64,000 bases of DNA from Octopus vulgaris (Eukaryota). The DNA lies in contig OX597818.1 in the NCBI GenBank assembly GCA_951406725.2, positions 137,888,001 through 137,952,000 of the forward strand. The letters are read 5' to 3'. The notes beneath the pieces were generated by a model that was given only the letters and a program-made list of their open reading frames with translations, ran no database searches and was not told the DNA's origin. Numbering within the stretch: position 1 is the first letter of the stretch; the number at the start of each line of letters is the position of its first letter. This document shows positions 19,371 through 19,996 of the stretch, one piece after another. A program made the translations under genes and the position numbers.

Positions 19371-19376
<6 letters not shown>

Positions 19377-19990
19377 ACATTATATAAAAGGGCTTAGTAA
19401 AATAAATTACTTTGCCGCATACTAAACTCATTAGAAATAGCAGTTAAAAAAACTTTTTTAAAAACTATCTCCAATACTTAAAGAAAATCTCTCTCATATA
19501 GTGTTTGCTCAATTCAACTCACGAAAGTATGAGGGTAGAGACATTAAAAAATCAAATGCAAAGGTTATTTGAGAACGTACGTTTCAAGATTAGTCAAAAT
19601 CGACACTTCTATCATCAGCTCAGAACTCCCTGGTTTGGATTTGAAAACACTGAAAGTGGGAGCATACCCTTTCGGCCTGTTATCGCTTCTGAAGATCTGC
19701 TCAAAACTAACAGTGCTAGCAAATTCAAATATGCAAACGAAGAATTTCTGCTCTCCCCTTTCCACCAGCGTGGGTTAAAATCAGCAAACACTATGCTTTT
19801 TTCGGTAAAATCCGAGGCATTATATAGAGAGAGATGAATTATAATTTCAACAATTGAGGGTAAAATTAATTAATTAATCAATTTCACCAAGTATTCAGTA
19901 TACAAAGGGACCATTTAAGGCGAATTCAAATTATTACATTATATAAAAGGGTGAAATTGATTAATTAATTAATTTTACCCTCAATTGTTG

Positions 19991-19996
<6 letters not shown>
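19371..19996 (-). mobile_element. Diverged ~1.1-unit copy of the 545-bp hammerhead repeat with terminal fold-back
   Basis: Colinear with the array unit; about 19949-19995 is the reverse complement of 19842-19888; flanked by (TA)n. Confidence 0.85.
19570..19622 (-). ncRNA. Type I hammerhead ribozyme
   Basis: Minus strand: tgag CTGATGA tagaagtgtcgattttgactaatctt GAAA cgtacg TT ctca. Confidence 0.65.

Follow-up and report, generated by a model that had tools for sequence, protein, structure and literature searches.

Two insertions of one repeat lie in a 64,000-nucleotide stretch of the Octopus vulgaris genome (contig OX597818.1; the whole stretch is called the window here). Why do both fold back on themselves, and why do they stop at nearly the same two points? 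The first-pass annotation had described the smaller locus, at 19371-19996, as a diverged sister of a big array at 25409-28822. It took their shared geometry as a sign of a defined integration mechanism directed to TA repeats, and not of an assembly artefact. As to the kind of locus, the present analysis goes further: it is the known insertion footprint of Penelope-like elements (PLEs) on a non-LTR retrozyme. Published sources are cited by PMC number or DOI, for the parts of their text that were accessible.

Results

The layout of both insertions is given in Table 1, in which unit positions are counted from u1, the first base past the predicted hammerhead cleavage site. The long arm of the locus has its 3' end at 19371 (end A, u201), and its inner 5' end lies near u181 of the preceding unit. 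The right arm, taken as 19950-19998, is a 49-nt exact reverse complement of 19840-19888. Within the internal tail copy a long hairpin was found at 19859-19888 (folding z of -3.47 for 19840-19950). The GC content of positions 19001-20000 is 0.32, and no ORF of at least 120 aa was detected across the locus or the big array. A near-perfect 55-bp tandem repeat of 14 copies with 99% matches occupies positions 21074-21845 of the window.

Table 1. Parts of the two insertions, in window coordinates
Feature	Position	Strand	Remarks
Whole locus	19371-19996		581-nt arm and 49-nt inverted arm, (TA)n tract on either side
Left (TA)n tract	19340..19370	.	putative half of the target microsatellite
Long arm	19371..19951	-	581 nt, 1.04 units; the hammerhead strand is the minus strand
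Type I hammerhead motif	19570..19622	-	stem I TGAG/CTCA, interrupted stem II, GAAAC
Tail of about 90 nt between sites A and B, internal copy	19840..19929	-	
Head-to-head arm junction	19950..19951	.	arms overlap by 2 nt
Short inverted arm	19950..19996	+	47-49 nt, u243-u290; 3' end is end B and continues into (TA)n
Right (TA)n tract	19995..20067	.	
Big array, left arm	25409..27943	-	2,535 nt, about 4.6 units of 545 bp; 3' end B
Big array, right inverted arm	27936..28822	+	887 nt; 3' end A; 8-nt junction overlap

The long arm aligned with the big array at 86.4-86.7% identity over 587 columns (86.5% for the whole comparison). Their termini are nearly identical, as the first-pass annotation had reported. 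End A was located at u201 on the left of the locus and at u203 on the right of the array, and end B at u290 on the right of the locus against u289 of the array's own 545-bp unit on its left; the left end of the array falls 5-7 bases short of site B of the locus. In both insertions the outer ends, four in all, are 3' ends of the hammerhead strand and abut (TA)n, also in agreement with that description. The cores (CTGATGA versus CTGAAGA) and the triplets (GTT versus GTA) differ between the two loci exactly as it had stated, while stem I (TGAG/CTCA) and stem III are the same in both. The unit of the locus has copies of 98-100% identity on many contigs of the genome, so its distance to the big array is a difference between subfamilies and not decay. 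The description as a diverged sister is thus right in respect of the identity; the reading as an old, decayed copy was rejected, since the locus belongs to a separate young subfamily.

In the hammerhead of the locus, the core CTGATGA lies at 19618-19612 and is accompanied by a palindromic GTAC loop and the triplet GTT; cleavage is predicted between 19574 and 19573. The motif was matched 117 and 37 times in the two top-hit locus sets. Four related families, S, B, C and D, could be compared. The core reads CTGA(T/A/C)GA in S, B and C and TTGACAA in D, the latter a U3-A8 variant of the kind described in PMC4209133. Pairing of the stems is kept across the four families (TGAG/CTCA; CCCATG/CATGGG, also CCTATG/CATAGG; ATTATA/TATAAT), judged by inspection and not by a formal covariation statistic, and this extends the stem conservation noticed earlier in two loci. 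The sequence of stem I changes completely among families with its base pairs kept, and loop III is palindromic (GTAC or GCGC) except in family D. No hammerhead match was returned by Rfam at the gathering score or at E up to 10, and folding of the monomer region gave a minimum-energy structure other than the hammerhead (z +0.8 to +1.8). Both results speak against the hammerhead, although they are expected for motifs with a weak stem III, which according to PMC4209133 act as dimers. The 5' ends of arms are not enriched at the cleavage site (5 of 152 within 6 nt, against 3.3 expected). Of 145 terminal arms, 128 cross the predicted site, which speaks against a cleaved linear monomer as the template.

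The core pattern of the family gave 2,139 matches in the 2.8-Gb genome and none for the reversed control, and the core, GAAAC and GTH recur at a regular spacing of 556/545 nt. Units measure 545-560 bp and each carries a type I hammerhead motif. To judge from these sequence features, the family is a non-coding non-LTR retrozyme in the sense of PMC7229834: a hammerhead per unit, dispersed tandem units, no coding capacity and a GC content below 50%, with no LTR-like layout among the mapped loci. In the first 82 Mb of contig C1, 39 clusters were counted, with arms of up to 8,942 nt. By extrapolation from these, the young short insertions are estimated at a thousand or more. Contigs from sequencing runs that we guess to be RNA cover the unit, and strand, ends and circularity are unreadable in them. 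In runs X6, X16 and X19, which carry the labels of three other organisms, 27-53% of the unit's words were present; relatives therefore share the family.

The 86 mapped loci are made up of 39 best matches to 19371-19996, 12 best matches to the big array, and a further 35 that came from a positional sample. This sample covers the same 82 Mb of C1; it favours longer copies because an intact core was required. Three of the 86 loci are bounded by gaps, and ends were typed on the other 83. One locus found in two stretches (L080/L173), which reads B+A, was excluded from the 86. The set of 51 two-arm loci used below omits L053, L042 and loci of more than two arms.

The 83 loci comprised 59 inverted and 24 single-arm insertions, and 27 of 37 readable loci in the positional sample were inverted. 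In all 59 inverted loci the arms stand head to head with their 3' ends outward. One end was A and the other B in 58 of the 59 with readable ends, and neither A+A nor B+B was seen; the sole exception (L042) carries a 35-nt inverted scrap. Under equal and independent choice of ends, such pairing has a chance of about 1e-17. Single arms ended at A in 10 loci and at B in 14, which implies that either site is able to act alone. Exact ends mostly fall at u191-207 (A) and u284-290 (B), about 90 nt apart; the limits of the two end classes were set wider than these clusters, at u160-210 and u270-312. Shortened A ends, at about u170-175, occur in three loci (L041, L047 and L141). Termini are therefore confined to two intervals and inversions are frequent, the opposite of the random termini and rare inversions that would speak against a defined mechanism; the recurrence of the same two ends across the 86 loci is far beyond chance. 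Later changes were noticed in two loci, an insertion of another repeat inside an arm near site A (L144:1362-1546) and a local duplication taking in flank (L152:1926-2343).

The proposed targeting of TA repeats was borne out. (TA)3 adjoins outer 3' ends in 142 of 145 cases and outer 5' ends in 22 of 24, whereas 9.6% of control positions have it; assembly gaps bound two of the three 3' ends that lack it. With (TA)n on both flanks, any target-site duplication is masked. TA joined at the B site was also present in contigs from three of four independent runs, in support of the earlier view that the structure is no assembly artefact.

The inner ends behave differently. In the 51 two-arm loci the inner 5' ends occur all along the unit. 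The length of one arm is not correlated with that of the other (rho -0.005), and the offset of one inner 5' coordinate from the other follows a uniform distribution (KS p 0.70); inner ends no more than 15 nt apart were found in 6 loci against 2.8 expected (p 0.056). A 5' run-off common to both arms was seen in 4/51 loci, without significance (p 0.20). The B arm is the longer one in 33 loci (p 0.023), partly owing to the tail itself. As for containment of one arm in the other, 32 loci allow it with B first, 8 with A first (among them 19371-19996) and 11, one of them borderline, in neither order. Junctions could be scored in 46 loci, the other 5 having no anchor: 13 contain filler, 3 are blunt and 30 overlap. 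The overlap reaches at least 2 nt in 26 of the 33 filler-free junctions, against 18.6% expected. In L140 and L148 both inner ends lie at one unit position, at short palindromes, and the B arm of L148 is the tail alone. Extra unit fragments of 35-233 nt, some of them re-inverted, lie between the arms of L045, L049, L051, L065, L141 and L163, which suggests template jumps before joining.

The two arms of a locus are very similar in sequence. Pooled over 47 loci they differ by 0.34%, compared with a mean median of 5.6% to other loci. The largest difference within a locus was 1.5%, and none of the 47 joins arms from different haplotype clusters; the 27 positional loci alone form 22 clusters at 1%. 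The own partner arm was closer than the best other locus in 23 cases, tied in 12 and farther in 12, so that in 24 of 47 it is no closer, and derivation from one RNA is unproven against derivation from two sister molecules. Units diverged by 0.33% when compared in register, by 0.32% when compared out of register and by 0.25% inside one arm. Among 96 unit variants, 85 were singletons, 9 were shared within an arm, 2 across arms off register and 0 across arms in register. Such alike divergences without variants shared in register would follow from units that were all identical when inserted. Homogeneous units, together with arms that run through the cleavage site, fit a monomer bottleneck and a circular template; an uncleaved homogeneous multimer as template fits as well.

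Families C and D, two more distant relatives, are non-coding hammerhead families with homology and the same layout from the hammerhead to the tail, and more than 1,700 first-look candidates were obtained for each (seen at L104:1076-1670, L232 and L098:1180-1350). After removal of duplicate loci, A+B pairing was found in 28 of 33 inverted loci of C, the older family with a unit of about 595 bp; 4 had other ends and one (L200) was B+B-like. In family D (about 552-556 bp) 12 of 15 inverted loci were A+B, and the rest paired B with an end short of A. The tail was present in the family D query and in one of two family C queries, so end B is over-sampled in both; B+B would have shown. Neither tblastn nor ORF scans revealed an attached ORF at C and D loci.

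An autonomous EN+ Penelope-like element was considered as an identity for the locus and rejected, since the unit contains no RT/GIY-YIG ORF and none was found attached to copies of families S, B, C or D. A coding PLE family was detected elsewhere in the genome (L251:1745-4087), with a 781-aa ORF containing RVT_1 and GIY-YIG domains and a 359-aa second frame upstream. It is young, with a tandem period of about 4.8 kb and 99% identical copies, and has TA flanks and two ends about 40 nt apart; all 4 inverted loci visible among 30 were A+B. Its CxxxxCxxC linker, read by eye, resembles the Neptune motif of PMC8557442. The window itself holds a 5'-truncated coding PLE between (TA)n tracts at 46977-49790 (RVT_1, E 9.5e-8; GIY-YIG, E 0.0036), in which a hammerhead-like motif was spotted by eye near 49655-49685; it has no similarity to the retrozyme unit. 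Beside it, at 49830-50300, a head-to-head inverted pair starts from a (TA)n tract, with hammerhead cores at 49991-50028 (-) and 50097-50134 (+); it looks like a different family of the same layout.

In the search for a helper PLE, both units were compared by blastn with 12 GIY-YIG loci and with the PLE of the window, and a four-family nhmmer profile was run against 32 PLE-bearing stretches, a part of the genome's PLE diversity, and against the window. Both comparisons hit separate retrozyme insertions only, and no coding PLE with sequence in common with the unit was found. Four short motifs were likewise absent from one supplement file of PMC8557442. Two loci with widely spaced copies contained no PLE ORF.

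Discussion

Metazoan non-LTR retrozymes (Cervera and de la Pena 2020, PMC7229834; 10.64898/2026.07.22.740005) have several features in common with the present family: tandem repeats a few hundred bp long that do not code for protein, in each of them a type I hammerhead whose stem III is short and whose tetraloop is palindromic, low GC, dispersal as monomers to multimers, and a PLE as proposed helper. The unit measures 545-595 bp here against 170-400 bp (PMC7229834) and 51-972 bp (10.64898/2026.07.22.740005). Circular RNA and self-cleavage have been shown for published members, whereas in the present family cleavage is predicted and a circle proposed. In the accessible text of these two sources fixed paired termini are not described; 'inverted' is absent from the main text of the former and occurs once in the latter. 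PMC4209133 mentions hammerhead pairs 100-700 bp apart on opposite strands.

There is also a close likeness to EN+ PLEs (Penelope/Poseidon, Neptune; PMC8557442, PMC3846280, PMC11167929, PMC2377424), in which partial tandems, an inverted 5'-truncated copy, a tail at one end, microsatellite or (TA)n targets, a hammerhead upstream of the tail and two internal RT start sites recur. The inverted copy, a tail that is often one-ended and the microsatellite targets are reported in PMC8557442 and PMC3846280. In vitro, two internal RT start sites bound the tail and both strands of AT-rich DNA are nicked, and an enzyme dimer is predicted (PMC11167929). Unlike these elements, the retrozyme has no RT/GIY-YIG ORF, its tail is about 90 nt long instead of 30-40, and it carries up to 16 whole short units per arm. 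Its loci nevertheless display the marks of PLE mobilisation, namely an inverted 5'-truncated copy at the 5' end, a one-sided tail and a preference for microsatellite targets. Since these are known PLE hallmarks, the insertion design is not new. A search of the freely readable literature (including PMC2377424, PMC8969392, PMC11722881 and PMC9977147) brought up no such footprint on retrozymes, no strict A+B count and no twin-priming model for PLEs.

The element is very probably a PLE-mobilised retrozyme. For the manner of insertion we favour, with a probability of roughly 0.6, double target-primed reverse transcription on a single RNA molecule, probably a circle, carried out by a PLE enzyme. A tandem copy would be transcribed, and its hammerheads, probably as dimers through the palindromic loop, would release a monomer that is then circularised. 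A PLE RT/GIY-YIG dimer would bind the conserved hairpin between A and B, a putative protein-binding site that is kept in families S, C and D (z -3.47, -3.70 and -3.59). Both strands of the TA repeat would be nicked, one nick priming at A and the other at B, about 90 bases apart. Each cDNA would extend toward the 5' end of the RNA, rolling round the circle by strand displacement until a random stop, and the two cDNA ends would be joined through microhomology or short filler. Where one priming failed, a single arm ending at A or B would result. We know of no RNase H in PLE reverse transcriptases. In LINE-1 twin priming, two target nicks prime on one RNA and give head-to-head arms with microhomology joints. 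In the retrozyme, by contrast, the two start sites are constant and separated by only about 90 nt, poly(A) is lacking, and hundreds to thousands of bases of sequence are common to both arms. Against this account stand the failure to find a coding PLE related to the unit in the stretches searched, the missing Rfam match and the different best fold of the monomer, the 24 loci whose arms are no closer to each other than to another locus, the B+B-like locus of family C, the length of the tail compared with that described for PLEs, and the geometry of 40 of the 51 two-arm loci, which is compatible with one arm having copied the other.

That last point belongs to the strongest competing account, in which priming occurs once, the cDNA or antisense RNA folds back and primes on itself, and an endonuclease makes staggered cuts at A and B. 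Self-priming has been proposed in PMC3846280 and endonuclease resolution of the tail in PMC8557442. It accounts for strict A+B pairing and for identical arms; the 40 loci compatible with containment include 19371-19996, whose short arm could indeed be the snap-back implied by the term 'fold-back' in the first-pass annotation. The coinciding inner ends of L140 and L148 and the somewhat longer B arms also suit it. As a general description, though, the term does not hold: containment is violated both ways in the 11 loci, and distances between inner ends are uniform, with close pairs hardly above expectation, and not those of short loops. A B-first fold-back fails in 19 of 51 loci; to rescue it, one side would have to have lost as much as about 5.9 kb by deletion afterwards (L044). 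Uncorrelated arm lengths and the common occurrence of single arms ending at A (10/24) likewise speak against self-priming, which we regard as unlikely.

Two primings on two RNA molecules by an asymmetric enzyme dimer, the arms matching because one source locus dominates in each cell, would fit independent arm lengths and junction microhomology equally well, and the absence of variants shared in register across arms agrees with it. It needs an additional reason for strict A+B, and despite 22 clusters among 27 positional loci not one of 47 loci mixes haplotype clusters; it is judged quite improbable. Later rearrangement of tandem arrays, by recombination or replication slips, or mis-assembly has some appeal in that repeats between (TA)n tracts assemble poorly and a few loci are gap-bounded. 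It predicts neither constant outer 3' ends nor constant A+B pairing with a junction particular to each locus, and the uniform head-to-head polarity and the B-site TA joints in independent runs add to the case against it, so that hardly any weight is left to this explanation.

Published arguments about which enzyme mobilises animal retrozymes draw on co-occurrence and on kinship of sequence (PMC7229834; 10.64898/2026.07.22.740005), PLEs being named as candidate helpers in the former and supported by kinship in the latter (Li et al. 2026). A PLE footprint on retrozyme insertions is mechanistic evidence for this link. The origin of tandem and inverted PLE insertions and of one-sided tails is stated to be unresolved in PMC8557442 and PMC11167929; strict A+B pairing, independent arms and one haplotype per locus are statistics that separate double priming from the published self-priming. 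More tentatively, PLE integration in general may be an obligately asymmetric double priming, with one dimer, one RNA, and A and B on opposite strands. If so, one mechanism would explain the one-sided tail, the inverted pLTR and the tandem arrays; on a ribozyme-made RNA circle both polymerases would roll independently, and retrozymes would be a long-lived lineage of PLE parasites that needs only the tail hairpin.
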